A stretch of DNA of 64,000 nt from Clostridia bacterium (lineage in GTDB: Bacteria > Bacillota > Clostridia > UMGS1840), in NCBI GenBank assembly GCA_017625695.1, contig JAGAKI010000069.1, positions 2,228 through 66,227 of the forward strand. The letters are read 5' to 3'. Both the position numbers and the translations under genes were made by a program. Shown here in pieces: positions 5,119 through 62,788 of the stretch. The notes beneath the pieces were generated by a model that had not been told where the DNA came from, made no database searches, and saw only the letters and a program-made list of their open reading frames with translations. Each line of letters opens with the position of its first letter. Position 1 is the first letter of the stretch.

Positions 5119-5330
5119 ACACTTAAAGTGTGCAACGAAAAATCCTGCCGTTCACGTCAGCCGGGTATTTATTAGAACCAACACTTTTTATAAGGGAGCC
5201 AATCTCCTCTCGTCAATTGTAGGCCCACCGCCTTTACGGCCGTATGGGGAACGTGCGACTGAGGGTAAGCACCCACCTGCACATGCAGGTTTCTAATATT
5301 ATCTTGGGGCAACGGTCCGGCGGGTTTTTT
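5119..5330 (+). ncRNA. ssrS: candidate 6S RNA (SsrS-like)
   Basis: About 210-nt non-coding interval. The 5' segment AAAAATCCTGCCGTT...TATTAGAACC is complementary to the 3' segment GGTTTCTAATA...AACGGTCCGGCGGGTTTTTT, giving a long interrupted closing stem. The internal GTAAGCACCCACCTGC resembles my recollection of the CTTACACCCACCTAC stretch of B. subtilis 6S-1. It ends in a T-run. Confidence 0.5.
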
Positions 5331-5372
5331 ATTATTTTCTTGCTGCTTGAAAAAAGAATACAAGCCAAATAA

Positions 5373-5409
5373 AAGGCATAGGATCACTATAAAATCCTAT
5401 GCCTTTTTT
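5373..5409. terminator. bidirectional terminator hairpin (AAGGCATAGGA-loop-TCCTATGCCTT); copy 1 of a repeated element
   Basis: 11-bp perfect stem flanked by an A-run and a T-run. A near-identical hairpin is at 40656-40693. Confidence 0.7.
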
Positions 5410-5420
5410 GATAAAAAGGA

Positions 5421-5810
5421 TGCAGAATTTGAACATCGAACCCGAAGCTGTATATAGGATACTGCGAGTGGTGAAATTCACAGATTCTGCGCTTTTTTCT
5501 ATTCCCAAAGGCGCAGAGAAAAGGCTGCAGAATTTGAACATCGAATCCGAAGCTGTATATAGGATACCGAGAGTGGTGAGATTCACGAATTCTTCGCTTT
5601 TTTCTATTCCCAAAGGCGCAGAGAAAAGGCTGCAGAATTTGAACATCGAACCCGAAGCTGTATCTAGGATACTGCGAATGGTGAGATTCGCGAATTCTTC
5701 GCTTTTTTCCATTCCCAAAGGCGCAGAGAAAAGGATGCAGAATTTGAACATCGAACCCGAAGCTGTATATAGGATACTGCGAGTGGTGAGATTCGCGAAT
5801 TCTGCACCTT
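5421..5810. repeat. 105-bp tandem repeat, 3 full units plus a decaying 4th
   Basis: TGCAGAATTTGAACATCGAA recurs at 5421, 5526, 5631 and 5736, an exact 105-bp period. Units differ at only a few positions. Confidence 0.95.
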
Positions 5811-5830
5811 TTCTCAAGCCGTCACAGGTG

Positions 5831-6013
5831 CTACTCGTAGAGTGCCTCCTTCAACCTTTCTTCCATCCGTTTTATCACAAAACTTCCCCTGGCTTTCGGG
5901 GGTAAGGTTGGTTTTGGAGGTGTGAGGGCTTTTTTCCACTGTGTGACAAACTGACGGAATTGAAAGAGTTGAAACACTTGTAATAATATCAGAATCAATA
6001 GTAATACGGTCAT
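5831..6013 (-). CDS. small membrane protein (single N-terminal TM, basic Pro/Lys tail)
   Basis: 60 aa, MTVLLLILILLQVFQLF.... Its start overlaps the stop of the 597-aa gene as ATGA (6010-6013). Confidence 0.5.
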   Translation of the reverse strand: MTVLLLILILLQVFQLFQFRQFVTQWKKALTPPKPTLPPKARGSFVIKRMEERLKEALYE

Positions 6014-7803
6014 AGCTTATCTCTCTCCTTCCTGATGTGAAGATAGATATTTAAAATGGTCAGTTTTTTGGTATCCGCCGGATTGGCAGTTCCAAAAACC
6101 TCCAGTAAAAAGATGTTGCCCGATACCTTCCAGGGGAAAAAGGATTCCGAAAATTCACTGTCAAGATACCGGTATTTCCAGTTTGTATTCCCGTACATCA
6201 GATGATTGGTGTGCAGTAATTTTCCTTCCCGGGATTCCTTTTCCGAAGAAAGCTTCAGATAACAGTCAATCTCCCTGGGCATTCCCAACGCTTTAACCAC
6301 GACTTCCTCACAACGGGCAATTTCATTTTCTTTGACAGTTCCCAAAACCGGTGCTGTCATATGATACGAAATAGGAACGTCGGTATCGGTTTTTGGATCA
6401 TAATCGGTAGATACCCCACCGGCAAACGCCGTTACATACCTTCCGGACCCCATCAGAATATTCCCGTCGTAGTCTTCTGTCATACAACTGCAAGTAATTC
6501 CCTCATAACAAAGGAAGGCGGAAAGGTAAAAATTATACAGATACATGACGGAATCAATCACCAAATACAAAACACCGTTTTTGTAATAAGAAAACGCTGT
6601 TTTTTCAGGTTTTGGCAATCGGATTTTATCTCTGGACAAAAATTTGTACAAAGAACTGGAGGGTGAATACAACATCTGAACCGTCAGCATAGAAGAAGAA
6701 AAGTTCATCAATCCGCTTTCAGACAAAAAGCTGACACTTCCCGGCGTAGAACAAACCGTTTTTCCGTAAGGAGTACCGTCCGGCACACTTAACAGGGACC
6801 ATTGCCCGTCTTCGGTGGGGTCCGAGCCGACATAATGACTCCAACCGTATTCATATGCAACTACCACCGATTTTTCCACCACGGAAAGACCCGTAATTTT
6901 CCCCAGATGCAAATGCGGGTACAGCACATTTTCTTGGGAGTAAGTCTTCCAGTCATTGGGTTCACTGATATAAAGTGCCGTAGGATGGTCGGGATGTCCG
7001 CCTGCAAAATAGCGCATGGAAGCGGGATGCCACACAATGTAGGGACACCGGATTGCCAGTAATCCCGTTGCATCAGGTGTAGCTACTTTTTCAAAAACAT
7101 CTGATAAAGAATAACATTTTGTACGTTCAAATCCGGAATGACTGCAATAGAGTGTTCGCAGGTTCAGCTCAGCTTCCAACGCCTGTTTCTGTTTCATATG
7201 CAATAAATCGCCCAATTTCCCCAATTGCACAAACTGAGAGGTACCAAGCAAGTCACGGATGTTCTCACGAGTGGCATCGGTATGACTTTTCGCATAATAG
7301 AGAATGTTGGTTTCTTCATCCCAGATATTGGTGCCATATAAATCGGCAGGAAAATCTCCCGAAGTAGAATAATCCTCAGGCAAACGCTCAATCACCAGGT
7401 ATCCCTCCCAGGGATGCTCGACGATGAGGACACCGTCCACACGGCGGTAGATCGGCTTCAGCTGACAGATTGTTCCACCGTACAGAAAGGTAAAACCGTC
7501 GGTTACGGGAAGGACCTTAAAGTTGGTTGCAGTCATACTGAGATTGCACATGACGCCTGCCACCAGGATGTGCAGAGTGTTTTTGCATTGCACAAATAAG
7601 ATTTCGTGTCCTTTGGTGCTTAATGCCTTATGAATGTTGGTAACCTCCCCCGAAAAGGGACCGTATTTTCGTTGGGTACCGTCTCTGACGGTCAAACCGC
7701 CTCCCTCCACGTCCAGATTGGTCAAATCCAAAAGTTCGTTGGTTTTCATCAGATAGGGCGATTTCTGATTGACAATTCCCCCGGAAAAATCATAGTAATT
7801 CAA
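6010..7803 (-). CDS. phage virion-associated protein, aromatic/beta-rich (possible nozzle or tail-tubular-B-like)
   Basis: 597 aa with a TTG start 8 nt after GGAGG. Its position downstream of capsid and adaptor-like genes matches podovirus gene order. No motif recognised with certainty. Confidence 0.45.
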   Translation of the reverse strand: MNYYDFSGGIVNQKSPYLMKTNELLDLTNLDVEGGGLTVRDGTQRKYGPFSGEVTNIHKALSTKGHEILFVQCKNTLHILVAGVMCNLSMTATNFKVLPVTDGFTFLYGGTICQLKPIYRRVDGVLIVEHPWEGYLVIERLPEDYSTSGDFPADLYGTNIWDEETNILYYAKSHTDATRENIRDLLGTSQFVQLGKLGDLLHMKQKQALEAELNLRTLYCSHSGFERTKCYSLSDVFEKVATPDATGLLAIRCPYIVWHPASMRYFAGGHPDHPTALYISEPNDWKTYSQENVLYPHLHLGKITGLSVVEKSVVVAYEYGWSHYVGSDPTEDGQWSLLSVPDGTPYGKTVCSTPGSVSFLSESGLMNFSSSMLTVQMLYSPSSSLYKFLSRDKIRLPKPEKTAFSYYKNGVLYLVIDSVMYLYNFYLSAFLCYEGITCSCMTEDYDGNILMGSGRYVTAFAGGVSTDYDPKTDTDVPISYHMTAPVLGTVKENEIARCEEVVVKALGMPREIDCYLKLSSEKESREGKLLHTNHLMYGNTNWKYRYLDSEFSESFFPWKVSGNIFLLEVFGTANPADTKKLTILNIYLHIRKERDKL

Positions 7804-7815
7804 AACCGTTTCCTC

Positions 7816-8346
7816 CTATCTCCACTCCGGTGTTTCAATGGGTGTTGGTCGTTTTCTTTGTCTCTTTGCGATACTCTCGTGAATGGCAGTACAGTTTCCG
7901 TGAAACTCTTCAATCAGAGTATCTGCCAAACGGTTGGAGGGATCATCGGCACGAAGGACGGAAAATGCCACATATTTGCAAAGCTCCGAATCATATTCCG
8001 GAGCAACCGGGATAGGCTCTTCCGCCGATAGTTCTCCGGAAAATACGCTGTAATAATAGACCAGATAACTGCCCGGTTCTGAAAAAGAAAGCCCTCTCTC
8101 ATCACATTGGTAGTCAAAATAGCGATGCTTGTCCCGATAGATTTTGTAAATCCCCCTGTGTTTGGGTAAAGGATAGGGAATGTCCGTCTCGGTACACTCC
8201 ACCGAAAGGCATTTGATAGGACAGGCAGTATCATATTTGGCAAACATCAGCCGAAGTCCTTCCGTGAGATAAATTTTTGCAAGTGAAATATCCACCTGCT
8301 TTCCGATGAGGATGGATGCCACATCGGTTACTTCCTGTAAGGTCAT
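7816..8346 (-). CDS. phage head-tail adaptor-like protein (tentative)
   Basis: 176 aa with a strong AAGGAGGA RBS. The N-terminus MTLQEVTDVASIL resembles connector/adaptor family starts. Assignment rests mainly on position. Confidence 0.4.
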   Translation of the reverse strand: MTLQEVTDVASILIGKQVDISLAKIYLTEGLRLMFAKYDTACPIKCLSVECTETDIPYPLPKHRGIYKIYRDKHRYFDYQCDERGLSFSEPGSYLVYYYSVFSGELSAEEPIPVAPEYDSELCKYVAFSVLRADDPSNRLADTLIEEFHGNCTAIHESIAKRQRKRPTPIETPEWR

Positions 8347-8374
8347 GGTATATCCTCCTTATGTTTTGTTTCAT

Positions 8375-8770
8375 TTATATAAAACGCGTAGAATAGGCAT
8401 CCCGATCTACGGTGTCTTTGGATTCATGATGATTCAGATACGAAAGCACCTCTTTGGTTTTCACACAAGCTTCCTCAGGAATTTCCCGGTTTTTTTCTTC
8501 CAGTCTCCGGTTGTTTTGATCCATCTCGGAAATCAAGGTATCCAGGTTGGAAATTCTGGTTTTTTGGACCAGGTCCAGGGTTCTTGCATCCAGCTCCGGA
8601 TAGGGTACCGTCAAACAATAGGTGGTTCCTGCCTGCCCGCTGTGATGCACCTCGAAGGTCTTTTTTTCGTGATTTCTTACCACAAAATAATTGGAATCTA
8701 TTTCCCTGAGACGTTCAGGAATCCGATAAACATTAGTTAAGATAGGTGTAGTTTGAAACTGTTTTTGCAT
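8375..8770 (-). CDS. hypothetical phage-module protein
   Basis: 131 aa with RBS AGAGGAAG. Located directly after the post-capsid terminator. Confidence 0.5.
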   Translation of the reverse strand: MQKQFQTTPILTNVYRIPERLREIDSNYFVVRNHEKKTFEVHHSGQAGTTYCLTVPYPELDARTLDLVQKTRISNLDTLISEMDQNNRRLEEKNREIPEEACVKTKEVLSYLNHHESKDTVDRDAYSTRFI

Positions 8771-8785
8771 AGCTTCCTCTTTTTT

Positions 8786-8813
8786 GAAAAAGGGAGGAGA
8801 AAAGTCTCCTCCC
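8786..8813 (-). terminator. intrinsic terminator directly after the capsid gene
   Basis: On the minus strand, GGGAGGAG-acuuuu-CTCCTCCC followed by TTTTT. It lies 16 nt upstream of the next start codon. Confidence 0.6.
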
Positions 8814-8932
8814 TTCTGTTGATAGGGAAACGGGAAAAACTTTTAAACTGGCACACCGAACCATAAGCATACCAAGTGTCTGCCCGGTGATACGGTTTGT
8901 TTTCCGAAGCTTTTTCCCATTTCCTTTTTACA

Positions 8933-10081
8933 TTACACAGTAATTCCTGTGAGTCTTGCCTGACCGCCCGGGTGGTCACACATTAACTCGCCGTATTTGG
9001 CAAGCACAGCGGTCCAGGCAGGTTTTCCGGCAATCTGTTTTAAGATTTTGCCGTCATCATCCAGCCAATCCCAATCGGACAGAACGTGCATTGCAAACGA
9101 TTTGGAGTTCAACAAATCCATCGTGCCGTCAGGACAGTGACGGTCTGCAACCACGGGAATTCCACCAAAGGAAATTGCCTGGAAACCGCCCTCTAAGGTC
9201 AAGGGATCAATATTTCTTCTGGTTAATTCCAGATAAGACAGATAACTTCTTCTCACATCGTAGGAACAGGAAATATAGTCCACGGTGGAGCCGGCGGTTT
9301 CTTCCAGATAGTCGATGGCAGTCTGAATTTTCAAATCAGAAATTTCACCGGTATTTGCCGACAGATAGGGCATCATCCAGTAATTTTCCGCACGGTTCAC
9401 ACCGTAAAGAGTCTGAGTAGTATCGGAATTAAAAATGGCACCTAAGCCGGTGAGTTCCTTTCCGTAAGAATTCTGAACGGTTATCTTATCTCCCTCTGAC
9501 GCAGAGGTTGCCGAATCCAGTACCAGAACTTTTTCTGCACGGTTAATGGCAATAATTCGTTTGCCTTTTTCCGTATAGGAGGGACCGATGATATCGATAA
9601 TCATCCCTTCCATCAGATACTTAACCGAATCGACAAAAATCTGATTTGCTGCTGCTACCATAACGGTTGCAATCACACCGCTGCCGTCGGTAAATAAAGC
9701 TCTGGAATAGTTGAATTTGGCAGCTTCTAAGATGCCTTTCATTTCCTCAGTGAGTAAATCCACAAAGGAATTGGTGTTCAGACGTGATGCTTTCATGGCT
9801 TTATCGGAAATTTCGATTACTCCATACATATCTTTGGTGGTAGTCTCAAAATGAGTGTAGTTGTTGGAACCTGCTTTGGGCAAACTGCCGGAATCGGAAG
9901 AAAAACCGAAGCCGCCATTTAATGCATAGGGAGCAAGTCTTACCACCTTGTTACCGATGATGTTTTTGGAGGTTGTAACAATTTTGTTGTAAAAAGGGTT
10001 GGTGTTTGTGTTTAACTGGTTTCTTAAAACGTCCAGATAATAGCTTTTTAAAGCCACGTCTGCTGTGTTGGTAGTAATCAT
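8933..10081 (-). CDS. phage major capsid protein (HK97-fold type)
   Basis: 382 aa. Typical capsid-family layout (MYGVIEISDKAMKAS..., ...GGFQAISFGGIPVVADRHCPDGTMDLL...). It directly follows a scaffold-like gene. Confidence 0.8.
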   Translation of the reverse strand: MITTNTADVALKSYYLDVLRNQLNTNTNPFYNKIVTTSKNIIGNKVVRLAPYALNGGFGFSSDSGSLPKAGSNNYTHFETTTKDMYGVIEISDKAMKASRLNTNSFVDLLTEEMKGILEAAKFNYSRALFTDGSGVIATVMVAAANQIFVDSVKYLMEGMIIDIIGPSYTEKGKRIIAINRAEKVLVLDSATSASEGDKITVQNSYGKELTGLGAIFNSDTTQTLYGVNRAENYWMMPYLSANTGEISDLKIQTAIDYLEETAGSTVDYISCSYDVRRSYLSYLELTRRNIDPLTLEGGFQAISFGGIPVVADRHCPDGTMDLLNSKSFAMHVLSDWDWLDDDGKILKQIAGKPAWTAVLAKYGELMCDHPGGQARLTGITV

Positions 10082-10124
10082 AATTGCGAAGTCCTTTCTT
10101 TTCGTTACAGGTAAGAGATTTCTC

Positions 10125-10658
10125 TTACTGTTTTACCATCTGAAGAAACAAGTCTCCTGCTTCTTCAAAAGTTTTTGGTTTGGTGCCCGGAGTGGTATAA
10201 AACTCACCGCCTTGTCCGGCAATCATTGCCGGGGGCATCTGAGACAGACTGCTCGCATACTCACGATAGATGTGGGGCGGAGTTGTAAGCATCCGTTTGA
10301 CAAAGGTGAAGGCAGCCTGGTTATCCAAAGACAAAAGCTCAGGATTTTCGGTCAGATAAGAGATAAATTCGTAAGCCCGATCAGTTAAGGCGTGCTCCTG
10401 TAAGAATTGATCAAGGTCACTTTGGAATACTGCAGTTTCATCCGGGATAGCGGAATCCTTCAGGAGTTCACGTGCCTCTTTTAATTCTTCTCTGGTCTGG
10501 GAAATAAATTTTTCGCTTTCGCGATAGGCTTTTTCCAATTCGGAATAATCTTTGAATTTCCCGAGAATCAGAGGAGGTTCTCCCCCGTTCCCGTCCTGAT
10601 CGGTCTCAAGTGAAGGTTGGAGAGACTCCAACTGAGTTTCATTGGGATTATCAATCAT
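10125..10658 (-). CDS. phage capsid scaffolding protein (tentative)
   Basis: Start moved to ATG 10658 (MIDNPNETQLE) behind AGGAAGG. Acidic, helix-prone, with GKFKDYSELEKAYRESEKF, a pattern common in scaffolds. Located immediately upstream of the capsid gene. Confidence 0.6.
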   Translation of the reverse strand: MIDNPNETQLESLQPSLETDQDGNGGEPPLILGKFKDYSELEKAYRESEKFISQTREELKEARELLKDSAIPDETAVFQSDLDQFLQEHALTDRAYEFISYLTENPELLSLDNQAAFTFVKRMLTTPPHIYREYASSLSQMPPAMIAGQGGEFYTTPGTKPKTFEEAGDLFLQMVKQ

Positions 10659-10909
10659 TTTGGTTCCTTCCTTTCTGTATATCAAAATGTTTGCCGGAAT
10701 ACCGTTATCACTACCACATCCGGGACTTCTTGCGGCTTCCGTCTCACACAGTATGTCAAATTCCAACCCCTTTTACAAGTTCAACATTTTACCCGCTTTT
10801 TCGTCACATCAAAAGGCAGAAACACAAGAATCCCATTCCTATTTACCAAATAAACATTTTTCCCCCACCAATTCGGTAAATAAAAATACAGAAATTCGCC
10901 AAGAGTTTC

Positions 10910-14925: not shown

Positions 14926-15879
14926 ATGGAACAGAAAAAATGTACGCCTACCTCCATTGGCGGTCAGGCGGTAATCGAAGGGATTATGATGAAAGGTCCC
15001 AGCTGTATGGCAACCGCAATCCGGAAATCAGACGGCTCTATTTTAGTGGACAAACAGGAATCTTCTTCTTTTATCCGCAAATATAAATTAAACAAAATCC
15101 CGATTTTACGTGGATTTTTAGCATTTTTTGAATCCTTGTTCACCGGTGTAAAATGCCTGATGTTTTCTGCCAAAGAATGTGACCTGGAAGATAACTCCTA
15201 CGAAATGAGCAAAACCGAAAAATGGGTGATGGATAAATTCGGCGACCAGCTGTTTGACATTTTAATGTATGTTTCCGTCCTGATTTCTCTGGTGTTAGGG
15301 GTGGGTCTGTTTATGATTCTGCCCAAGCTGACGGTAGAATGGGTTTCCAAACTCATCGGCACCAACATCCACGAAAGCATTTCTGTGCTCATTGAAGGTG
15401 TCATCCGCATCACTTTATTTGTGATTTATATGCTCTTAATCTCCAAAATGAAAGATATCCATCGGGTATTCCAATACCACGGTGCAGAACACAAAACCAT
15501 TTTTGCTTACGAATACGGCGACGAATTAACTGTGGAAAACGTGAAAAAACATACCCGTTTCCATCCCCGTTGCGGTACCAGCTTTCTGGTGTTGGTAATG
15601 ATTGTATCCATCATTGTATTCTTCTTTGTGCCGGCAACCACTCTCTGGAGTAAAATTCTCTGGAGAATTGCTCTGCTTCCTGTAGTGGCAGGCATTTCTT
15701 ATGAACTTATCAAATACGCAGGAAAATGCTCCAATCCATTCACCAGAGCTTTATCCAAACCCGGTGTATGGCTGCAGCATTTCACCACCAAAGAACCGGA
15801 TGATTCCATGATTGAAGTAGCAATCGCTGCTTTGAAAGCAGTATTACCCGACGATGAAAACGAATCCACCAAATGGTAA
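14926..15879 (+). CDS. DUF1385 domain membrane protein
   Basis: 317 aa with the GGQAVIEGIMMKGP block and several TM segments. It is the conserved partner gene of prmC. Confidence 0.8.
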   Translation: MEQKKCTPTSIGGQAVIEGIMMKGPSCMATAIRKSDGSILVDKQESSSFIRKYKLNKIPILRGFLAFFESLFTGVKCLMFSAKECDLEDNSYEMSKTEKWVMDKFGDQLFDILMYVSVLISLVLGVGLFMILPKLTVEWVSKLIGTNIHESISVLIEGVIRITLFVIYMLLISKMKDIHRVFQYHGAEHKTIFAYEYGDELTVENVKKHTRFHPRCGTSFLVLVMIVSIIVFFFVPATTLWSKILWRIALLPVVAGISYELIKYAGKCSNPFTRALSKPGVWLQHFTTKEPDDSMIEVAIAALKAVLPDDENESTKW

Positions 15880-22921: not shown

Positions 22922-22963
22922 AACCATATCCTCCACAATTCAACTTTGGAAAAATTATATCAT

Positions 22964-23008
22964 ACTCATAAATTGAGTATTGACATTTACTCAAACATTG
23001 AGTATAAT
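22964..23008 (+). promoter_or_regulatory. consensus promoter TTGACA-17 nt-TATAAT overlapped by two ACTCA-N5-TGAGT palindromes (candidate XRE operators)
   Basis: Operator 1 at 22964-22978, operator 2 at 22989-23003. The -35 is at 22980-22985 and the -10 at 23003-23008. Confidence 0.6.
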
Positions 23009-23041
23009 GAATTTATCATTTATTCTACGGAGGGAAAATTT

Positions 23042-25345
23042 ATGAATATGAAAAGATTAAGTGTTACAAACCGGATCGTCGCTTTCAGCTTAATTTTTAT
23101 AATGTTATACGGATTGTTACCAAGCAAAAACGTATATGCATATACCGCAACAGTTACCTACAATAACGCTGTATCCAGTATTTCAGAAATTGATACCCGT
23201 ATCGACAATTTAATCGAAAAATATGTAGGCACCTATTGGACAACAAATGGGAAAGCCGCTGATTCCAGTGGCTCAACATCATTATCATATTACGGTATTC
23301 AATGTAATGGTTTTGCAAAATTAATTTTCAACGATCTATTTGACTGTGGTAGCATAGGAACCTATGATACAAATAAGTATTATTTTCCAAATACAACCGT
23401 TGCAACACTTGTTGAAAAAAAGTACAATATTTCGGAAACAGATTCCACAACAGTTAAAAATATTTTGTCAAAAGGCAAAAAAGGTGATTTTATACAAGTC
23501 AGAAGAAGAGGAAAAGACTATGGTCATTCTATGATTTTAGTTGATGCAGACGACAGTGGACTTTGGATTTTCGATTGTAACTCCGATGGAAAATGCAGTG
23601 TAAAATACTATTATCAAAGTTATAAAACATTTGCATCTAAAAACGTAGGTCTATCGCTCTACCATGCCAATAACTATCCTTTAGATAGTATTCCCACAAT
23701 CACAAGTGCTTACGGTGAGAGCCACTCCGAAATAAAAATCAAATGGAACAAAGTTCCGTCCGCTACAAAGTATGAAGTTAAGAGAAGAAAAGCCGGAACT
23801 TCAGATTACATCACGGTAACCGGTTCTGTAACCGATACCAGTTATACCGATACAGGATTGAATAAAAACCAACGGTATTTTTACAAAATAACTGCTTATA
23901 ACGGTTCTACCCCCTTAGGCACTTCAGACGGCGTAGGTGCATACACAAAATTTGACGCCCCCGATGTAGTTTCAGAAAGCAACACAAAATTAACAATCAG
24001 TTGGGATTCTGTTTCTATGGCAGAAAGCTACACCATCAAACGTAGACGGGCAGATGAAGAAGAATACAAAACCATAAAAACAGTCAACAGTTCCACTCGG
24101 ACCTATACCGACAGCAACTTAGATCCCGCCACACAATACCTCTATTTGATTCAGGCAAATTGCAATGTTGATGAAATCGAAATGGTTTCCAGATCAACAA
24201 TCGGAACTTGCTATACTATGATGAATATGCCCGTTGTCTCTTTAAACGATGATTCCTGTATAACCATTACCTGGGAAAAACCGAAGGATTTTACAGAAGG
24301 TAAACATAAGTTCCGCATTTACAGAAAGTTAGATACCGATGCAAGCTTCGCCAACAAAACACTTGCAGAAGTTACCAATGGCAATACTTACATTGATACT
24401 CAAACAGAACCGAATACCGTCTATCAGTACCGAATTGTAATGTTAGACACTTCCGATAACCGCTACACATATTCGAGTGTCGGAACAGGTTACTCTCTTA
24501 TGAATGCTCCTGCCATAACACTGACGGACAATTCAACATTGAAAATCAGCTGGGAAGCCCCCTCAGATCTTGATTTATCAAACCATACCTACCAGATATA
24601 CAGAAAATTACCTGATGAAGAAAGCTTTAAATACCATACTCTTGCATATGTGACCGGTCAAACCTATTACGAAGATTCCGACATTGACCCCAATCAGACG
24701 TATCAGTACCGAATCGTTTTGCTGGATCAAAAGGAAAATCGGTTGACCTATTCCAGCATCGGAACAGGATATTCTCTTATGAATGCACCTACCATAACAC
24801 AGACTGATAGTGAAACGTTAAAAATCAGCTGGAACGCTCCCCAAGGGGTTAATTCATCCAATCATACCTATCAGATATACAGAAAACTGCCTGAGGAAGA
24901 AAGCTTTAAATATCATACCCTTGCATATGTAACCGGTCAAACCCATTACGAAGATTCCAACATTGACCCCAATCAGATATATCAGTACAGAATTGTTTTG
25001 CTGGATCAAGAGAAGAATCGGTTAACCTATTCCGATATTGGTTCCGGTTGTGTCATCAAAAACACTGATGCATCTTCGGTTTCCAATGTCACCGTCAAAG
25101 AAAATACATATTTGGTAACAACATCCTTACAAAATATCCAGAATTCTTGTGATATCATTGTTTCCGGATATCAAAATAAAGAATTAGTTGATATTACCAG
25201 TGTTCCATATACCGAAGCCGGACACAGCACAACTCTGTATGGCACAATTGATGAAATTAAAGTTATGGTATGGGATAGTCTATCCACAATGTCTCCTCTA
25301 TGCGAAGCTGAGATAATTACTGAAAATAATTTCATTACAGAATAG
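23042..25345 (+). CDS. secreted NlpC/P60-like cysteine peptidase domain protein with about 8 FN3-type repeats
   Basis: Start moved to ATG 23042 (signal peptide MNMKRLSVTNRIVAFSLIFIMLYGLLPSKNVYA). Cys/His pair context YYGIQCNGFAKLIF ... GDFIQV..DYGHSMILV. Repeated about 90-aa units contain the W..V..A..Y.(I/V).R motif. Confidence 0.7.
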   Translation: MNMKRLSVTNRIVAFSLIFIMLYGLLPSKNVYAYTATVTYNNAVSSISEIDTRIDNLIEKYVGTYWTTNGKAADSSGSTSLSYYGIQCNGFAKLIFNDLFDCGSIGTYDTNKYYFPNTTVATLVEKKYNISETDSTTVKNILSKGKKGDFIQVRRRGKDYGHSMILVDADDSGLWIFDCNSDGKCSVKYYYQSYKTFASKNVGLSLYHANNYPLDSIPTITSAYGESHSEIKIKWNKVPSATKYEVKRRKAGTSDYITVTGSVTDTSYTDTGLNKNQRYFYKITAYNGSTPLGTSDGVGAYTKFDAPDVVSESNTKLTISWDSVSMAESYTIKRRRADEEEYKTIKTVNSSTRTYTDSNLDPATQYLYLIQANCNVDEIEMVSRSTIGTCYTMMNMPVVSLNDDSCITITWEKPKDFTEGKHKFRIYRKLDTDASFANKTLAEVTNGNTYIDTQTEPNTVYQYRIVMLDTSDNRYTYSSVGTGYSLMNAPAITLTDNSTLKISWEAPSDLDLSNHTYQIYRKLPDEESFKYHTLAYVTGQTYYEDSDIDPNQTYQYRIVLLDQKENRLTYSSIGTGYSLMNAPTITQTDSETLKISWNAPQGVNSSNHTYQIYRKLPEEESFKYHTLAYVTGQTHYEDSNIDPNQIYQYRIVLLDQEKNRLTYSDIGSGCVIKNTDASSVSNVTVKENTYLVTTSLQNIQNSCDIIVSGYQNKELVDITSVPYTEAGHSTTLYGTIDEIKVMVWDSLSTMSPLCEAEIITENNFITE
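24482..25039 (+). repeat. two near-identical 279-bp (93-aa) intragenic tandem units
   Basis: GGAACAGG(T/A)TA(C/T)TCTCTTATGAATGC recurs at 24482 and 24761. The units encode ...HTYQIYRKLP(D/E)EESFKYHTLAYVTGQT.... Confidence 0.9.
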
Positions 25346-25346
25346 C

Positions 25347-25385
25347 AAAACCACCGTAGAAACTGAGTTTCTACGGTGGTTTTTT
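25347..25385 (+). terminator. intrinsic terminator
   Basis: CCACCGTAGAAAC-tgag-TTTCTACGGTGG followed by T6. Confidence 0.85.
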
Positions 25386-25530
25386 ACGATAAAAGTTTTC
25401 TCTGTCAGGCGAAGAAAAACGGATGAAAATGGAAAAACCGAACACCCACCGGGTGATTATTATGCCATAAGCCGTACAAAGGTATGGCGAGTGATAAGGT
25501 TCATCCATTTTACGCTTTTTTTCAAGCCTC

Positions 25531-35942: not shown

Positions 35943-36040
35943 GAAGAAAATAATGGGGGATGCTGTCCCCATCGTATTTTTTGACTTTCCCAGTAACCAT
36001 CGAATAATTCTCAACGTTTTTTTTAAAATGAGGTGATTCC

Positions 36041-38323
36041 TTGAAAAAAAGCAGAAAAAATCTAACCTTCGGCAAACTGTTCTGGACAGCCTTAAAAGCA
36101 ATTTTTAAAGTTTTGATTCCCGTGGCTTTCTTTGTGGGAATTGCATTGGTAATTTTTATCATTGCGGCGGCAGAACCCATTGATGTGGATGATTTGCGCC
36201 TGGATTTAACCAGTAGCATCTGTTATTTAAACGAAGACGGAAAGGTCATGGAATTTGAAACAATTTCCGGCTCGACCAACCGTTTCTGGGTGGAATATGA
36301 TAAGGTTCCCCAACATATGAAGGATGCTTTCATCTCCATTGAAGATGAGCGTTTCCTTTCCCACAAGGGGTTTGACATCAAGCGTACCACCAAAGCAGTA
36401 TTTGACTATTTCCGGGTAGGCTCCAAAGCACAGGGCGGAAGTACCATCACCCAACAGCTGGTGAAAAACCTTACCAATAACCAGAAGCGTACCCCCATCC
36501 GTAAAATCCAGGAAATCTGGATTGCCTACCAGCTGGAACGGCAGTTGACCAAGGACCAGATTTTAGAACTCTATATGAACACCATCTATCTGGCGCAAGG
36601 GGTAAACGGTGTACAAACCGCTTCTCAGCTGTACTTTGACAAAGACGTTTCTGAACTGAGTCTGGCACAGTGTGCCTCCATTGCGGGTATCACCCAGTAC
36701 CCCAGTTACTATGACCCTTTCCTGCAACCGGAAAACAACAAAAACAAACAGGAAGTTGTCCTCAGAAAAATGCTGGAATTGGGCAAAATTTCCCAGGAAG
36801 AACACGACCAGGCTGTAGCAGAAAAACTGGACTTTAAAAAAGGCAATATGAAAGTCACGGTTTCCTCCCAGTCCTATATGGCAGAAACCGTAATCTCCGA
36901 CGCCATTGATTTATTGGTCAATGAAAAAGGCATTTCCGAAACCATTGCCAAAAAGAAAATCTTATCCGGCGGTTATCAGATTATTTCTACCGTAGATCCC
37001 AAGGTTCAGGCCGCCATCGACAAAGTATTTAAAGATCCCTCCAATTTCCCCTCCTCTCCCTACAGCGAATATCCTCAGGGTGCTATCGTGGTCATGGACC
37101 CTCAGACCGGTCATATCAAAGGTCTGTATGGCGGAATTGGTCCCAAACCCGGTTTATATTCCTTAAACCGTGCCATCGCAACCACCCGCCAGCCCGGTTC
37201 CTGTATCAAACCAATTGCAGTTTATGCACCGGCAGTAGAAGAAGGTCTCATCACTCCCAACACCCTCTATACCGACCAGAAGGTTTCCTACGGAAGCTGG
37301 AGCCCCAAAAACTATTACAGTGGTTTTCGCGGCTCTATGACGGTACAGCAGGCAGTTGCCCAGTCAGTCAACACCATCCCGGTGCAAATTCTGGATTCTC
37401 TGGGCGTGGACAAGTCCTATAAATTTTTGAAAAACAAAATGCATATTTCCAGCCTGGTGGAAGAAGACAAAGGTCTGGCAGCATTGGCACTCGGCGGCAT
37501 GACCAACGGAATCTCCGTAAAAGAAATAACTGCAGCCTATGCTACGTTCGGCAACAACGGTGTCTATACCGAACCGGTTACCATTTTGGAAATCCGTGAC
37601 AGCTACGGAAAACCCGTGGTTAAAGTGACCCCGGAAACCACAGTGGCAATGAGCGAAAAAACAGCTTCTGCAATGCATCAGATGCTTTGTAGTGTTATCA
37701 ACTACGGTACCGGTACTGCCGCCCGGATTTCCGGCGTTCAGGCAGGTGGAAAAACAGGGACCACCGATGAAGACAAAGACCGTTGGTTTGTGGGATACAC
37801 TCCCAACTATGTGGCAGCGGTATGGTACGGATTTGATACCCCGAAAGGAATGGATTATGTCAGCGGAAATCCGGCATTAAACGCCTGGAAAAAAGTGATT
37901 GGTCCTCTGATGGAAACTGCGCCAGAACGGGAATATACCACCAAATCCACCGGAAAATACTACTACTCAGAACCCAAACCGGATACAGATGATGTAAAAG
38001 TCAGCGTTTGCAGTTTTTCGGGACTCTTACCCGTTCAGTATTGCTACGATACCAAAACCGTAACGGTATCCAGTTTCCCACCCGATCAGCAACCTACGCT
38101 GTACTGTTCGGAAGAAATCCACTTGAATCCGGATGCAAATTCCGGCGAAGTCACCACTCCCGATGAATCTGGAAATTCCGGTACAGTTCCCCCGGTTTCG
38201 GGTGAGCCAACTGCTCCCACCGAACCCATAGCTACGCCGATGGCAGAACCCACGGATGCACCTGTAACAGATCCCGTAACCCCACCCGTTTCAGACCCGG
38301 CAGTGGTAGCTCCGGCAGCATAA
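36041..38323 (+). CDS. class A penicillin-binding protein (transglycosylase/transpeptidase) with Pro/Thr-rich tail
   Basis: 760 aa, TTG start after AGGTGA. Motifs EDERFLSHKGFD, GGSTITQQL, SCIKP (SxxK) and KTGTT. Confidence 0.9.
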   Translation: MKKSRKNLTFGKLFWTALKAIFKVLIPVAFFVGIALVIFIIAAAEPIDVDDLRLDLTSSICYLNEDGKVMEFETISGSTNRFWVEYDKVPQHMKDAFISIEDERFLSHKGFDIKRTTKAVFDYFRVGSKAQGGSTITQQLVKNLTNNQKRTPIRKIQEIWIAYQLERQLTKDQILELYMNTIYLAQGVNGVQTASQLYFDKDVSELSLAQCASIAGITQYPSYYDPFLQPENNKNKQEVVLRKMLELGKISQEEHDQAVAEKLDFKKGNMKVTVSSQSYMAETVISDAIDLLVNEKGISETIAKKKILSGGYQIISTVDPKVQAAIDKVFKDPSNFPSSPYSEYPQGAIVVMDPQTGHIKGLYGGIGPKPGLYSLNRAIATTRQPGSCIKPIAVYAPAVEEGLITPNTLYTDQKVSYGSWSPKNYYSGFRGSMTVQQAVAQSVNTIPVQILDSLGVDKSYKFLKNKMHISSLVEEDKGLAALALGGMTNGISVKEITAAYATFGNNGVYTEPVTILEIRDSYGKPVVKVTPETTVAMSEKTASAMHQMLCSVINYGTGTAARISGVQAGGKTGTTDEDKDRWFVGYTPNYVAAVWYGFDTPKGMDYVSGNPALNAWKKVIGPLMETAPEREYTTKSTGKYYYSEPKPDTDDVKVSVCSFSGLLPVQYCYDTKTVTVSSFPPDQQPTLYCSEEIHLNPDANSGEVTTPDESGNSGTVPPVSGEPTAPTEPIATPMAEPTDAPVTDPVTPPVSDPAVVAPAA

Positions 38324-52258: not shown

Positions 52259-55200
52259 TTAGTCCTGGGGAACATCCAGCATACGCATGGTTCTCCAAGT
52301 GGGATAGGTATCAATGTCTTCTAATCTGGTCTTATCTTCCAGGCCTGCTTCTGCCATAATTTTCTGTGCGGTGGTGTCGTAGCTGGATACTCTGTAGTTG
52401 TTACCTTGCAGAGCAACTTCATTGGTGTTGGTTGCGTTAGATCCATAAATCCTAGCGGGGTTACGACCATCAGTATGATTGTAGCCGGCAAAACAGTTAT
52501 TGATATTTACATACTGTCTTGCAAAGAACCAATAATCGGTGGTGGTAGTATAAGCTTCGGTTACTACGTTATCACAAACGAAAGTGTATCCGGTTCCCTG
52601 GTCGAAGTAGATACCGGGAGCTTTGACCTGACCCGGGTCGATGACATAGTTATCGTTAATCTGAGTGCCTCGGAGATTACCTAAGGTGTAGATATGAGCA
52701 CCGTCACCCATGGTCTGCATTACATCATCAATTTTGTTGTAGGAAATGATGTGGTTACCGCAGTCTGCAGGATCATCATATCCCCAACCCCAACCGATAA
52801 CGATACCGGAATAAGAGGTATCTTTAATATCGTTGTGGTGAATGTTGGCATTGCCCACATAATACACAGAAATTGCGGTTAAGCCCTGGAATTCCTGAGC
52901 AGTACGACGGAAGATGTTGTTATCCACTTCGATGTTCTGGCAACGTTCGGTAGTAGAGGATGCGGCGTTACCGTCTCTGTAGTCACCAAGTACCACGCCG
53001 GTACCGGCAAGATCGTGGAAGTAGCTTCCTGTAATTTGAGAATTGGAAACGCCTTCTTCTAAAATGATGGCGCTGGAGCCCATAGAACCGAATTCACAAT
53101 TCTTAAATACTAAAGAATCTGCATAATTTACCCAAATCTGACCGGGGAAAATGTGGGAACCGTAATAGGTTTCAGAACCAAGTCTCCATTCTTCGGTCTG
53201 GTTGAAGGCTGCACCTTTTACGGTGATATCATCATAACCGCCGTAACGGAATGCGATGCCGTCAAATTCCAGATTGGTTACCTTGTTAGCGGAACCAATA
53301 CCGGTAATGCTCATCATACGGTCAGTGGTTGCACACCAGGTTTCAATGGTGTTCATATCTTCCTGAGCATAGGGGTAATAGTACATTTTGCGAGTTTCTT
53401 TATCGAAGTAGAATTCACCGGGCTGATCCAACAGCAGGAGAGAGTTTTCTAAATAGAAACCTGAACCTGCGGTAGGAGTAATGGTAGAGGTGTGTAATCC
53501 ATCGATACAGAATGCATTGTAGTAAGGATAGGTAGTGTAAATGGATACATTGCCGTTGGTGCTGTTGTATTCAATACTGTCAATGGGGAAACGATGGTTT
53601 GCCCACTGCAGGCTGAATACAATTTGCATTCTGGACTGCTGGGTGGCAGTCTGCTGATCCAATCCTTGGGGGAAATCAGCATTTCCATAGCTGGAAACCA
53701 GAATACCATCCGCTACATGAGCATCGTTTTTCGGTTCAGCAGGAGAAATCTCTACGCCTCTGTACCAACCATCGCTTCTTGCCATGGTTGCCTGATATCC
53801 GTTTACAAACAAGGCTCTGGTTTCACGGGTGGTAGTAGAAGCTACCCAGTAATTTTCACCGTCTACCTTAGTCCATTTACCGGTCAGGTCTTCCCCGCCG
53901 GAAATCACAGGTTTGTTATCGGGATCTTCTGCACGAATGATTACTTTGTGTCCGTTTTTACCGCCCATGGTGGGATCAATTTCGATAGCAACGGAACTTT
54001 TGTAAGTACCGGGAGCAACATTAACGATAATGTCGCCGGTCATATCATTGTTGATGGTTTTTACAATTTTTAATGCATTTGCCAGGTTGTTTACGGGAGC
54101 TTCCTTGGTACCTGCATTGGTAGATTTACCGCCGGTGGAAACATAAATTTCACGGTAAGGCGTTGCGTAAACATCTTTTGCGTAGGGCTTCGCATCATCC
54201 ATATGGGAGAATGTCAGCACTTTTAAAGTGCAGCCCGCACCAAGATTGGTAAAGCTTGCAGTTGCAACATCACCTTCGCGGGTTAATGCGCTGATGGCAA
54301 CTAATTTGTTACCGTTATATACTGCAGCAACCATAGATGTATCGGACGGAATATGCATGCAGTTTGCACTTACATAAGCAGTGCCTGCAGGCAGAGCATC
54401 CACTTCCTGACCGGAAGAATCCTTCACAATAACAGTAGGATCTACGATACATTCGTTGTATGCTTCCAGCATTTCGGCTGCAGTTTCGTATTTCTGTGCC
54501 ACCATCTTCCAGAAGGACATGGGAGCATATACATGGTTTACGGTATCTGCATTCACGTCGATATTGGCTGCTTCACCGTATTGTTCCAGAAGGTCAAATG
54601 CACCTTCTGCAGTGGTAACATTTTCAAAATCATGAATCAGATGGTAAGCCATGGAGTTGGTATCTTCCAAAACAATAGAATCAAAGTAGAAGCTATCGCA
54701 GTAGAATACGAATTTTAAGGTATGGGTACCTGCAGTCAGGTAGAGCTGTGCCACTTCTTCCTGCAGATATGCCCAAGCGGAATCGGTTCTGTCATTCTGG
54801 AAATGCATGGTTAAGTAATCCACAAAAACATCATCCACATAAAGGTCGAAGTTTACATCTTTCCAAGCCGCACCAACCAGATTCAGATTGTAAATGGTGT
54901 CTTCGGAAACTTCTACGGTGTAGCTTGCAATGGATTCGCTCTTAATCGCTAACACATCTTTACCGTTGTAGGTAGCAACATTACCTGCTGTTTCCGCTTC
55001 AATTACGGTGTATAAGTTGGTGTTAGAAACATCGGGAAGTTCCGGAACGGGAGTTGCGGTAGGAGCGGAAGAAGAGCTTCCGGTATCCACCTTTAAGTTT
55101 TGTAAGTTCATCTGGGGACCCCATACTTCGTGGTCTGCCAGACTGTCTTCCCCGTCAGTCATAGAGAGACGCAACGCCGTTAAGGTTGCGATGGAGGAAC

Positions 55201-58111: not shown

Positions 58112-61100
58112 TTATTCGTCTGCGGGAACGTCCAGCATACGCATGGTTCTCCAGGACGGATAGTAATCCACGTTCTGAAGTTCCGTCTGATTGTCAACAC
58201 CTGCTTCAGACATAATTCTCTGTGCAGATAAAGACCAGCTGGTAACATTTACGTTATTGTTTTCCATGGTCACAGCATTGCTTGCGAAACCGTAAGAACC
58301 GTTTGCAGAAGGCATCGGACCGTCAGTGTGGTTATAAGAACCGTAACAGTCTGCAATGTCAACATATCTTCTTGCAAACAACCAACGGTCGTCGGAAGCT
58401 TTTGCATCGGTGAACACGTTATCGCTGAAGTACAGATCCTGAGTTGCCTGGTCAAGGTACAGACCGCTCTTTAACAGATTACCCGGGTCGATAAAGTAGT
58501 TATCGTTAATCTGGTTGTAGCCCTGCAAACCAACGGTGTAGATATGAGAACCATCATTCATAGTCTGCATTACATCTTCAATCTTATTGTAAGCCACAAC
58601 GTTGTTTCCGCAATCGTCGGGTAATGCTGCACCCCAGCCCCAACCAACGGAAATACCGGTGTAGGGCATATCTGCGATGTCATTGTGATGAACTTTGGAA
58701 TCACCGGTGTAGTACATTGCTATTGCGGTGGTACCTAAGAATTCCTGTGCACAACGGCGGAAGATGTTGTTGTCTACTTCAATATGGGTAGAACGCTGTT
58801 TATCGGTAGACATATTCACATCGTGTAAGAAGTTTCCGACTACAACACCGGTACCGGAAATATCGTGGAAGGAGCTTCCGGTTACACGGCAGTTGGTGTC
58901 CCCTTCTTCAAAGAGAACTGCACTGGAGCCTAAGTTTGCAAATTCACAGTTTTTAAATACTACGCTATCAGCATAGTTTAAGGTAACCTGTGCAGGGAAC
59001 ATATAGCTTCCGTACCAGATTTCGCCGCCTAAACGGAGTTCGTCTGCCTGGTTGAAAGCTGCACCGTTGGTGGTAGCATCATCATAAGCACCGTGCTGGA
59101 AGGAAATACCGTCAAATTCGATGTTTGATACCTTGTTGGTAGCGCTAACACCGGTAATAGTCATCAGACCATCGGTTACTGCACAGAAGGTTTCTGCAGT
59201 GTTCATGTTTTCTTCCGGATAAGGATAGTAATACATCTTACGATTGGTTTTATCGAAGAAGAATTCACCGGGTTCATCTAAAAGATCCATAGAGTTTTCT
59301 AAGTAGAAGGAACCGGTAGGCTGAATGGTAGTGGTGGTAGCATCATCATTTAAGAAGATGTGGTATCTGGGGAACGGAATGTATACATATGCGTATTCAT
59401 AACCGTAGTAATCAGCATAGACTACTTTTTCCACAGGGAAACGATGGTTTGCCCAGTTTTTCTGGAATACTACCTGAAGTCTGGTATCGTCAGCTAAGGT
59501 TCTGGGGAAGTCGGTATCCCACTGTTCAATATTAACCAGGAAGCCGTCTGCAACATGCACATCATTTACCGGACTTTCGGGAGTAATGACATCATCAGCA
59601 ATATACCAGCCGCTGCTTCGTGCCATAGTTGCCTGATAGCCGTTTACATATAATGCTCTGGTTTCACGGGTGGTGGTAGATGCTACCCAGTAATCTTCGC
59701 CGGAAACCTTAGACCATTTACCGGTTAAGGGTTCCCCACCGGATAAAATGGGACGGTTGTTGGGATCCTCTGCTTTGATGATAACTTTGTAACCGTTCAT
59801 ACCGCCCATGTTCTGGTCAATTGCGATGGTGGTATTGCTGCGGTAGGTACCGGGAGCAATGTGCACCACGATATCGCCGGTCATGGTGGTATTGTATGCT
59901 TTAACCTTGGTTAATGCCTGAGCGAGGGTTGCCACGGGAGTTTCCGGAGTCAGACCGTCGTTGGAGGATTTACCGGTCGTTGCTACATAAATATCTTTAT
60001 AAACACCAACAGAATAGTAGGGTTTTGCTTCTTCCATATCGGAGAACACCATAATTTTTACCTGGCTCTGGGTGGTTAAACCGGTTAAGGTACAGGTAAC
60101 GGTGGTGGAGGTGCTCTTTAAGGTGTTTAAGTTGCCTGCCATTTTGCTTCCCTGATATTCTGCCACAACAATGGTAGAATTTGCAGGCATATTGGAGGTG
60201 TTGATAATCAGTCTTGCAGTGCCGGTAGGTAAGCTGCTTACCGGAGTGTTGGAAGAATTGTATAACTTCACAGTGGGGCTGGAAGCCTCGGTGGAAATGA
60301 TGGAGTTATAAGTGGAAAGCATATCATCTAAAGATTCAAAATCCTTGCCAACCATGGGCCAGAAGGACATCTGGGGATAGAAGATATTTGCAGTATCATT
60401 TACCACGTTGATGCCAAGCAGGGAGCCATATTCCACTAAAAGATTGTATGCTTCCTGAGAGGTGGTGGCATCTTTGAAGCCATATAACAGGTGATAGGTT
60501 CTGCTGCTGGTGTTTTCCAGACGGAAATCATCAAAGTAGAACACATCACAGAAATAGGTAAACTGAAGGGTATGAGTACCTGCAGTTAAATTCATGGAGT
60601 AGATTTTTTCAGTCTGCAGCGGATAGGAATCTTCTTTATGCAGATTGAAATGCATGGTTTCGTAAGACAAATAGGTTTCGTCAACGGTGATGTCTACGGA
60701 AACGTCTTTCCATGCAGCACCTCTTAAATACAGGTTATACACACCGGTATCAGGAACGGTAATGGTATAAGTAGAGGTGGATTCGTTGGTAGCGGTAATA
60801 ACTGTCGCACCGCCGTGAGATCCCTGAGTGGTACCGCTCTGAGAGGTGTAGCTTTCTGCTTCGGTAATAATCATATATTCAGAATCGGTGATGTTGGGAG
60901 TTGCAGTGGGAGTGGGAGTTACCACAGGTTCTGCCGGCATGGAAGATACCGGTTTTACAAAGCTGATATAAGACATGGAGTCATATCCGGTGGCATTTAA
61001 ATAACCGTAATCTATGGTAGATAAAATCACCGAATTAGCACCAATATTTTTTAAGGTAAAGGTATTTGCACCTTCGGTAAAGTACATGGGCTGGTCAATC

Positions 61101-62710: not shown

Positions 62711-62788
62711 TGATAAGTCCTCCTTCAAACGATAATCGTTTGTATTTTATATGCCGGACAAAGATTAGCAGGTCCGGACAGTTCAGTA

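Follow-up and report, generated by a model that had tools for sequence, protein, structure and literature searches.

A 105-bp tandem array beside a 6S RNA gene in a ruminant-gut Clostridia bacterium as a probable amplification of a dispersed family of structured elements

Introduction

The question raised by this locus is what is represented by a tandem array of 105-bp units that lies between a 6S RNA gene and a capsid-like operon. The host is an uncultured ruminant-gut Clostridia bacterium, and its closest MAGs are 75-87% identical to it in MnmA. In an earlier note, made from the sequence alone, the array had been read as possible tandem mini-sRNA genes facing a capsid module or, alternatively, as the structured 3' UTR of that module. 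The array was followed up here in the window (the whole 64-kb stretch of DNA that was analysed), in nine related MAGs (L001-L009) and in metagenome and phage contigs.

Results

TRF reported a tandem repeat at 5414-5803 with a period of 105, 3.7 copies, 93% matches, no indels and a score of 682, in agreement with the roughly 3.7 x 105 bp described before. The 20-mer that had served as a marker of the period was found exactly at 5421, 5526, 5631 and 5736 and nowhere else in the window (chance expectation 0.01). The four units, separated by linkers of about 7 nt at the 105-bp spacing, are listed with the other features of the locus in Table 1. Unit 1 is truncated at its 5' end and opens with the T-run of the preceding terminator in place of GCGCAGAG, and unit 2 is the most damaged copy, with an altered core CGAG and a weak fold. 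Unit 4 is intact, and 12 nt separate its 3' end from the stop of the converging gene, as in solitary members. The nested inverted repeats were also recovered: TGCAGAATT...AATTCTGCA is perfect in unit 4, which had been named as its best example, and TCTGCGC...GCGCAGA, assigned to unit 1, was found at the junction of units 1 and 2. Identity among the array units is 93%, and the tandem copies at the hisD locus of the related MAGs are far more diverged from one another. A CRISPR array was rejected, as the 105-bp repeats are contiguous and have no spacers. Elsewhere in the window, a 279-bp x 2.0 tandem repeat (24480-25033, 85% identity) lies inside an 799-aa ORF (22946-25345) and is probably a duplicated protein domain, and repeats of 6, 18, 24 and 42 bp (GGAGTn-type) are present at 61408-62110 in a minus-strand ORF of 1538 aa (58112-62728), which adjoins a 1913-aa ORF (52259-58000).

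Table 1. Coordinates of the array units, solitary members and adjacent features in the window
Feature	Position	Strand	R1 score (bits)	MFE (kcal/mol)	z	Remarks
Solitary member with P3	825..937	+	113.6			5 nt from hisD stop; orthologous single or tandem copies in L001-L009
6S RNA gene	5139..5330	+				Rfam RF00013, 83.2 bits against a gathering score of 46.4, full length; array downstream on same strand
Bidirectional intrinsic-terminator hairpin	5371..5407	.				A-tract/T-tract flanks; called on minus strand (5407..5371)
Unit 1	5406..5503	+	90.6	-26.7	-4.0	31/33 pairs kept
Unit 2	5511..5608	+	93.4	-20.0	-0.5	
Unit 3	5616..5713	+	97.2	-28.3	-2.9	
Unit 4	5721..5818	+	108.9	-41.2	-7.1	33/33 pairs
60-aa ORF	5831..6013	-				Last gene of 5-kb capsid-like operon; stop codon facing array
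Solitary member	25409..25526	+	82.6			Between terminator 25347-25383 and pgm stop (25531)

Upstream of the array, the window contains hisD and a gene with a phosphoribosyltransferase domain on the minus strand, a gene that is NrdR-like by Pfam, and mnmA with a 138-aa ORF on the plus strand. The plus strand at the terminator reads ...CCTATGCCTTTTTT, and the array begins at its T-run. On the other side, a minus-strand block of about 5 kb (5831-10766) encodes proteins of 213, 382, 131, 176, 597 and 60 aa, beyond which lie serC/serA-type and further housekeeping genes. The 382-aa product is a podovirus-type major capsid protein (8933-10081; NF033394 at 1.4e-65, phrog_14242 at 5e-53). No Pfam, PHROG, NCBIfam or PADLOC match was obtained for the other five proteins, and neither the capsid protein nor the 597-aa protein matched a PDB sequence; the 60-aa protein was also called in 13 metagenome contigs. 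No terminase, portal or integrase was seen in it; the block is a small capsid-like island amid housekeeping genes and no full prophage, with a domesticated capsid or a satellite remnant as possibilities. The array was also considered as a prophage end or att site, and this was rejected, as the 5-kb module stands among housekeeping genes, shows no recognised integrase and has no copy of the element at its other end. No tRNA or tmRNA was found.

In eight of the nine related MAGs, synteny with the window stops exactly past the 6S RNA gene. The ninth, L009, has leu-type genes inserted between the 6S RNA gene and the capsid-like block. Its capsid protein is 91.6% identical to that of the window, at only 75% identity in MnmA; this conservation beyond MnmA implies that the block is either mobile or strongly constrained. 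L009 thus retains the module without the array, and at the array position it has the leu-type genes and a plain terminator 12 nt after the operon stop. The proposed link between the array and the capsid module is not borne out by this genome, and absence of the repeat where the flanking genes stay, which the earlier note had set against its own reading, is what L009 presents, so that a locus-specific role fails. The unit family itself is conserved. A tie to the 6S RNA was rejected as well, since other copies of the element are not near a 6S RNA gene and the adjacency looks coincidental.

By sequence, the array units belong, in shortened form, to a dispersed family of elements 95-125 nt long. 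BLAST searches with a unit gave weak matches at 876-937 and 25469-25528 of the window and at one site in each of several related MAGs, with similarity to copies in L005, L002, L006 and L007. The matched sites proved to be full elements of 105-125 nt, to which an array unit aligns end to end except for a variable hairpin (P3). A covariance model, R1, was built from 14 copies, and it scored the four units at full length (90.6-108.9 bits) together with two solitary copies, giving three loci and six units in 64 kb. Because the array units were part of the R1 seed alignment, the independent checks are the BLAST similarity and the folds of single units. A weak R1 match on the minus strand at 36040-36139 lies within a coding region and was treated as chance.

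For the copies in L001-L009, R1 scores were mostly 73-117 bits, with two degenerate copies at 51 and 26 bits. All eight of these MAGs that cover the hisD locus carry one to three intact head-to-tail copies there, some with degenerate relics, in the interval from the upstream gene's terminator to the hisD stop. In L008, a 16-nt motif, CTGCGTACGGCATAAT, is repeated 2.9 times at 7176-7221 inside a degenerate unit of the hisD array; here half of the conserved hairpin has been amplified locally. L007 has one additional copy away from the hisD locus, in a convergent intergenic region that is highly variable between L007 and L008; at the corresponding site in L008 (about 15160-15260), a long inverted repeat of a different kind (GTCATTCCGAGG...CTCAGAATGAC) was observed, together with an additional small gene.

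Diverged full-length members scoring 35-54 bits were recovered from rumen and gut metagenome contigs and phage contigs by a metagenome scan for the core pattern, followed by filtering with R1. The scan also gave members in contigs of 64-71% GC, one of which carries an enolase 90% identical to proteins named Fibrobacterota by their sources. In a complete MAG of this Fibrobacterota-like group the element occupies the same place, diverged and with compensating changes. After the enolase-adjacent element, two Fibrobacterota MAGs have an unrelated tandem array of 86-95 bp (L224, 11463-11745; L225, 11489-11979), with 3.0 copies in the former and 5.8 in the latter. One phage contig, L218, which encodes a large terminase, a P22-like portal and a capsid, contains near-identical copies at 2768-2855 and 7458-7545 on the minus strand. 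Their orientation is that of the genes; one copy is located upstream of the terminase block, the other lies between portal and capsid, and an AU-only hairpin follows each. A phage-borne copy gave no blastn match among 50,697 GenBank phages, and the exact unit 20-mer gave none in viral contigs.

The family was not found in Rfam 15 or in the literature searched, and the family, rather than the array, is the object of interest. No known family had been recognised in the earlier note, and the Rfam 15 scans agree: at gathering thresholds the 6S RNA alone was detected in the whole window, and permissive scans of the array, of the L006 hisD array, and of eight gut-type and ten high-GC loci gave no match on the element, the best nearby matches being far below threshold and on other sequence. 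A literature search with core sequence strings returned one chance match only. Comparison by eye gave no support for a K-turn, loop E/sarcin-ricin, hammerhead, twister or group II domain V motif, nor for a retron, an integron attC or a TnpB or IscB guide-RNA scaffold: the motifs did not match, and no associated genes were present.

The inverted repeats of the array are part of a covarying structure, in which TGCAGAATT/AATTCTGCA is a real helix. In unit 4 the two ends pair (GAGAAAAGG-A-TGCAGAATT with AATTCTGCA-CCTTTTCTC), and the long end-to-end stem continues through an internal loop to a junction that bears the optional P3 hairpin, deleted from the array units, and the conserved module CCCGAAG-[GCYGUAY...RUACRGC]-CGAGNGGUGA. 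Across the family the apical consensus is CCCGAAG-[GYNGUAC hairpin]-CGAGNGG. The basal stem is AU-rich, and the strongest conservation is that of the asymmetric apical module, not of the arms; this module is common to the Clostridia of 43% GC and the contigs of 64-71% GC.

RNAalifold predicted 28 pairs from a MAFFT alignment of 14 sequences, 12 of them with compensatory changes. When 40 members were considered, 92.5% of cells were paired, as against 73.8% in shuffled controls and 31-56% with slid partners; double changes were seen in 24 of the 28 pairs and the covariation score was 0.45 against 0.148, all in an alignment (A2) that was fitted to the model, so that the counts lean towards structure. 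An independent MAFFT alignment of 11 high-GC members gave 33 pairs, 21 of which were compensatory. Single array units adopt the family shape, least well unit 2, and under the unit 4 structure the other units retain 30-31 of 33 pairs, with more G.U.

The pairing statistics favour the plus strand. G.U cells outnumbered A.C cells by 67:16 across the 40 members; one conserved U.G contributes 22 of the 67, and in the high-GC set the bias is gone once this pair is removed. Plus-strand folds were better than minus-strand folds by 4.4-7.3 kcal/mol in every array unit, and the conserved loops are purine-rich on the plus strand. The functional form would accordingly be read as a small structured RNA of the plus strand. 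No sigma-70-like promoter was called upstream of the units at the three window loci, and unit 1 starts at a terminator T-run, so that plus-strand transcription would need read-through. Judged by position, the most likely transcript here is predicted to be antisense, forming the 3' UTR of hisD, pgm and the capsid-like operon. This positional case for an antisense RNA conflicts with the pairing statistics.

In other gut members (L133, L183 and L172) the element is extended at its 5' end by a module of which the first 8-11 nt form covarying pairs with the 3' tail (CCUUGUGU/ACACAAGG, GCUUUAUGC/GCAUAAAGC and GCCUUUUGC/GCAAAAGGC); upstream of this 5' module, at a distance of 6-35 nt, there is a TATAAT or TGnTATAAT box. 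L172 has two units at a spacing of 273 bp, each with a promoter-like region of its own. These features are the best evidence that the family can form an independent plus-strand RNA gene. The consensus of the 5' module in these three is about CCUUUUGC-GGUCUGGGCAUUUUUU, and the unit becomes about 170 nt long with it; the choice of U-rich partner for the A-rich 5' strand is thereby circularly permuted.

Members of the family adjoin hisD, pgm, enolase, nrdJ, recA and other genes, and not just the capsid operon. Of 33 known downstream genes, 29 converge on the element; of 36 upstream genes, 27 are co-oriented with it. Wherever the upstream sequence was inspected, an intrinsic terminator was present at most about 100 nt upstream, and the units invariably point away from it; the gap from the terminator T-run to the element is 0-34 nt, with no fixed distance. 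Both in the array-bearing clade and in the high-GC group, the 3' end lies 4-14 nt from the converging stop, the genes concerned being hisD, pgm, gtrA, enolase, nrdJ (twice) and an FHA-domain gene. The co-directional nrdJ and ddl of one high-GC contig flank an antisense copy.

Gain and loss of the element between species are illustrated by the pgm locus, where the window has one copy, the species of L006 two and two further species none; in the species of L005 a short footprint remains on the pgm side, with one copy beyond the central terminator and directed towards the other gene. No clear boundary repeat and no target-site duplication emerged when filled and empty pgm loci were compared. Truncated relics occur upstream of arrays, and no transposase-like gene was seen beside any of about 60 loci. 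Within the species of the window, the array has 3.7 copies in contig L087 and 2.8 in L092 (units 1, 3 and 4, without unit 2), as counted from assemblies and hence open to short-read collapse; L088 has a scaffold gap within the array, and many contigs end at it.

Discussion

In our judgement, these comparisons make it probable that one member of a multicopy family of small structured-RNA elements was recently amplified in tandem to give the array, a reading held with moderate confidence. A REP/BIME-like selfish repeat ranks second, and both may hold together. Elsewhere in the family the RNA seems to be transcribed as a unit of its own, having a TATAAT box, the 5' module and a separate terminator. 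In this clade the units seem to have no promoters of their own, and the four copies, if they are made at all, would form one transcript, through read-through of the 6S terminators or from a weak start. The array would have grown, and would shrink, by unequal recombination or slippage between units. On the other strand, the stacked hairpins may double as the 3' UTR of the capsid-like operon and probably help to stop or insulate convergent transcription, the array as such having no apparent specific tie to the capsid genes.

That the element is a selfish extragenic repeat of the REP/BIME, ERIC or BOX kind, with effects only in cis (terminating, insulating or stabilising convergent transcripts), is a possibility of real weight, although we do not favour it. 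As a hairpin-forming DNA element, it would persist in the harmless gap that converging genes leave beside terminators, and its cis effects would come from stacked bidirectional hairpins. Such a repeat might spread by insertion after sites formed by a hairpin and a T-run, its own 3' end included, and insertion after its own 3' end would explain the head-to-tail arrays. Its multiplicity in 64 kb, its preference for convergent downstream genes, the nearby upstream terminators, the zero, one or two copies or footprint at the pgm locus of sister species, and the truncated relics, tandem clusters and copy-number variation between strains all argue for this reading; in addition, the units are flanked by GAAAAATGG...CCATTTTTC, which resembles a two-way terminator. 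Against it, conservation between members of 43% and 64-71% GC resides in the asymmetric apical module and not in the arms, the G.U to A.C ratio favours one strand, and some members have promoter-like boxes and a covarying outer helix. The lack of a target-site duplication, of a fixed T-run distance and of a transposase at the loci inspected also speaks against insertion of this kind.

Comparison with known repeats leads to a similar mixture of likeness and difference. REPs are GC-rich palindromes of 20-40 nt with a conserved 5' GTAG and are recognised by RAYT transposases. In E. coli, REP clusters are reported to terminate and stabilise transcripts from within 3' UTRs and to accompany convergent gene pairs (bioRxiv 10.64898/2026.03.23.713779). 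Like REP/BIME (for example REP325), the element was found to be multicopy, extragenic, placed at 3' ends and between converging genes, clustered in tandem and polymorphic between strains. Unlike a REP, it is 95-125 nt long, has an asymmetric purine-rich apical module and a wobble strand bias, and occurs across phyla; neither a REP-type palindrome nor, beside the roughly 60 loci, a RAYT-like gene was seen. The ERIC/IRU, BOX, RUP and bcr (Bacillus cereus group) repeats are imperfect palindromes or modular repeats of about 100-150 bp that are intergenic and transcribed; boxB occurs as tandem sub-units, and some such repeats have predicted RNA structure and compensatory changes. To our knowledge, each of these families is restricted to one genus or family. 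The present element reaches a phage contig and high-GC metagenome bacteria, and no sequence likeness to these repeats was apparent by eye. The preferred target of class C group II introns is the stretch immediately after an intrinsic-terminator hairpin, and the element likewise sits downstream of a terminator; it differs from them in its length of about 100 nt, its variable gap of 0-34 nt to the T-run and the absence of intron domains and of a reverse-transcriptase ORF.

A structured 3' UTR selected specifically for the capsid-like operon, for example to stabilise or terminate its mRNA, is improbable. The array does lie between the last stop of the operon (5831) and the terminator hairpin (5371-5407), as had been described, and every unit also forms a hairpin on the minus strand (-15.6 to -33.9 kcal/mol). 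However, the same element follows hisD and pgm within the window, the orthologous operon of L009 ends with its plain terminator, and the minus-strand folds are consistently weaker than those of the plus strand.

Still less probable is the reading as four autonomous mini-sRNA genes, each with a sigma-70 promoter and a T6 terminator, that act as antisense regulators of the capsid module. The sequence elements on which it was built are largely present: TTGAAC-16 nt-TATATA was found in units 1, 2 and 4, though not in unit 3, which has TATCTA instead, and GCGAA-TTC-TTCGC with T6 was located in unit 3 (5690-5702). The last unit does lack a T-run, as had been pointed out, and ends CACCTTTTCTC (T4CTC, no T6). 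The distant L172 shows, moreover, that tandem units with individual promoter-like regions can occur in the family. In the array, however, the hexamers sit within helices P1b/P2 and P4 and are missing from all other members, a sigma-70 scan calls nothing in or before the units, and a transcript starting from the hexamers would miss the 5' half of the conserved structure. As to terminators, units 1-3 end in a stem and T6, and the scan calls the one in unit 3, its sole terminator-like call inside the array; the stretch concerned is the 3' half of the helix that closes the unit. The capsid module without an array in L009 and the members beside unrelated housekeeping genes argue further against antisense regulators of this module.

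The array recalls LhrC1-5 of Listeria, the streptococcal csRNAs and Qrr in that small structured RNAs are arranged head to tail in intergenic regions. For each LhrC, csRNA and Qrr RNA, promoter and terminator are defined, and the single-stranded seed motifs are conserved. Unlike the LhrC and csRNA genes, the array units, 105 bp apart, have no promoter called by the sigma-70 scan, and the element is far more widespread, and more abundant per genome, than the tandem sRNA families. A type III toxin-antitoxin system (ToxI-like) was rejected, as no plus-strand gene follows the array, the next gene is convergent and PADLOC gave nothing for the neighbours.

A protein of 35-residue repeats is hardly credible: the period is divisible by 3, frames are open on both strands as had been stated (5399-5905, plus, 168 aa; 5332-5817, minus, 161 aa), and gene callers annotate 168-aa and 133-aa ORFs in metagenome contigs, but the plus ORF has no homolog at E <= 1e-3 among 5.8 billion proteins, both ORFs yield just sub-threshold Pfam and PHROG noise, the substitutions between units appear mostly non-synonymous in the plus frame, the matching frame is broken by stops in nearly all of 49 family members, and the plus ORF begins in the terminator hairpin and finishes within the converging gene. 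The earlier view that the array is non-coding is upheld by this absence of homologs and of a conserved frame.

The duplication itself is ordinary, and it is the element family that looks like an undescribed structured RNA or repeat. More tentatively, the unit may belong to an undescribed and phylogenetically broad class of structured RNAs of about 100-170 nt with an invariant purine-rich internal loop and hairpin, numerous in each genome, sited immediately after a terminator and capable of head-to-tail arrays, a proposal that we regard as somewhat doubtful. RNAs of this class might be protein-binding or catalytic RNAs of a new type, or a terminator-targeting, RNA-borne mobile element comparable to a bacterial SINE.

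If the element is a functional RNA, it would be a widespread, abundant and strongly covarying motif that is missing from the catalogues, at least from Rfam 15, with an unusual site after terminators and facing a stop, and its arrays would offer a natural handle on dosage. If it is selfish, it would be an extragenic repeat of a rare sort, with a core conserved across phyla and in phages, and a shared mobilising or binding factor would be indicated. Either way, the element accounts for assembly breaks at such loci in gut bacteria and for the spurious repeat ORFs that gene callers place at its arrays.
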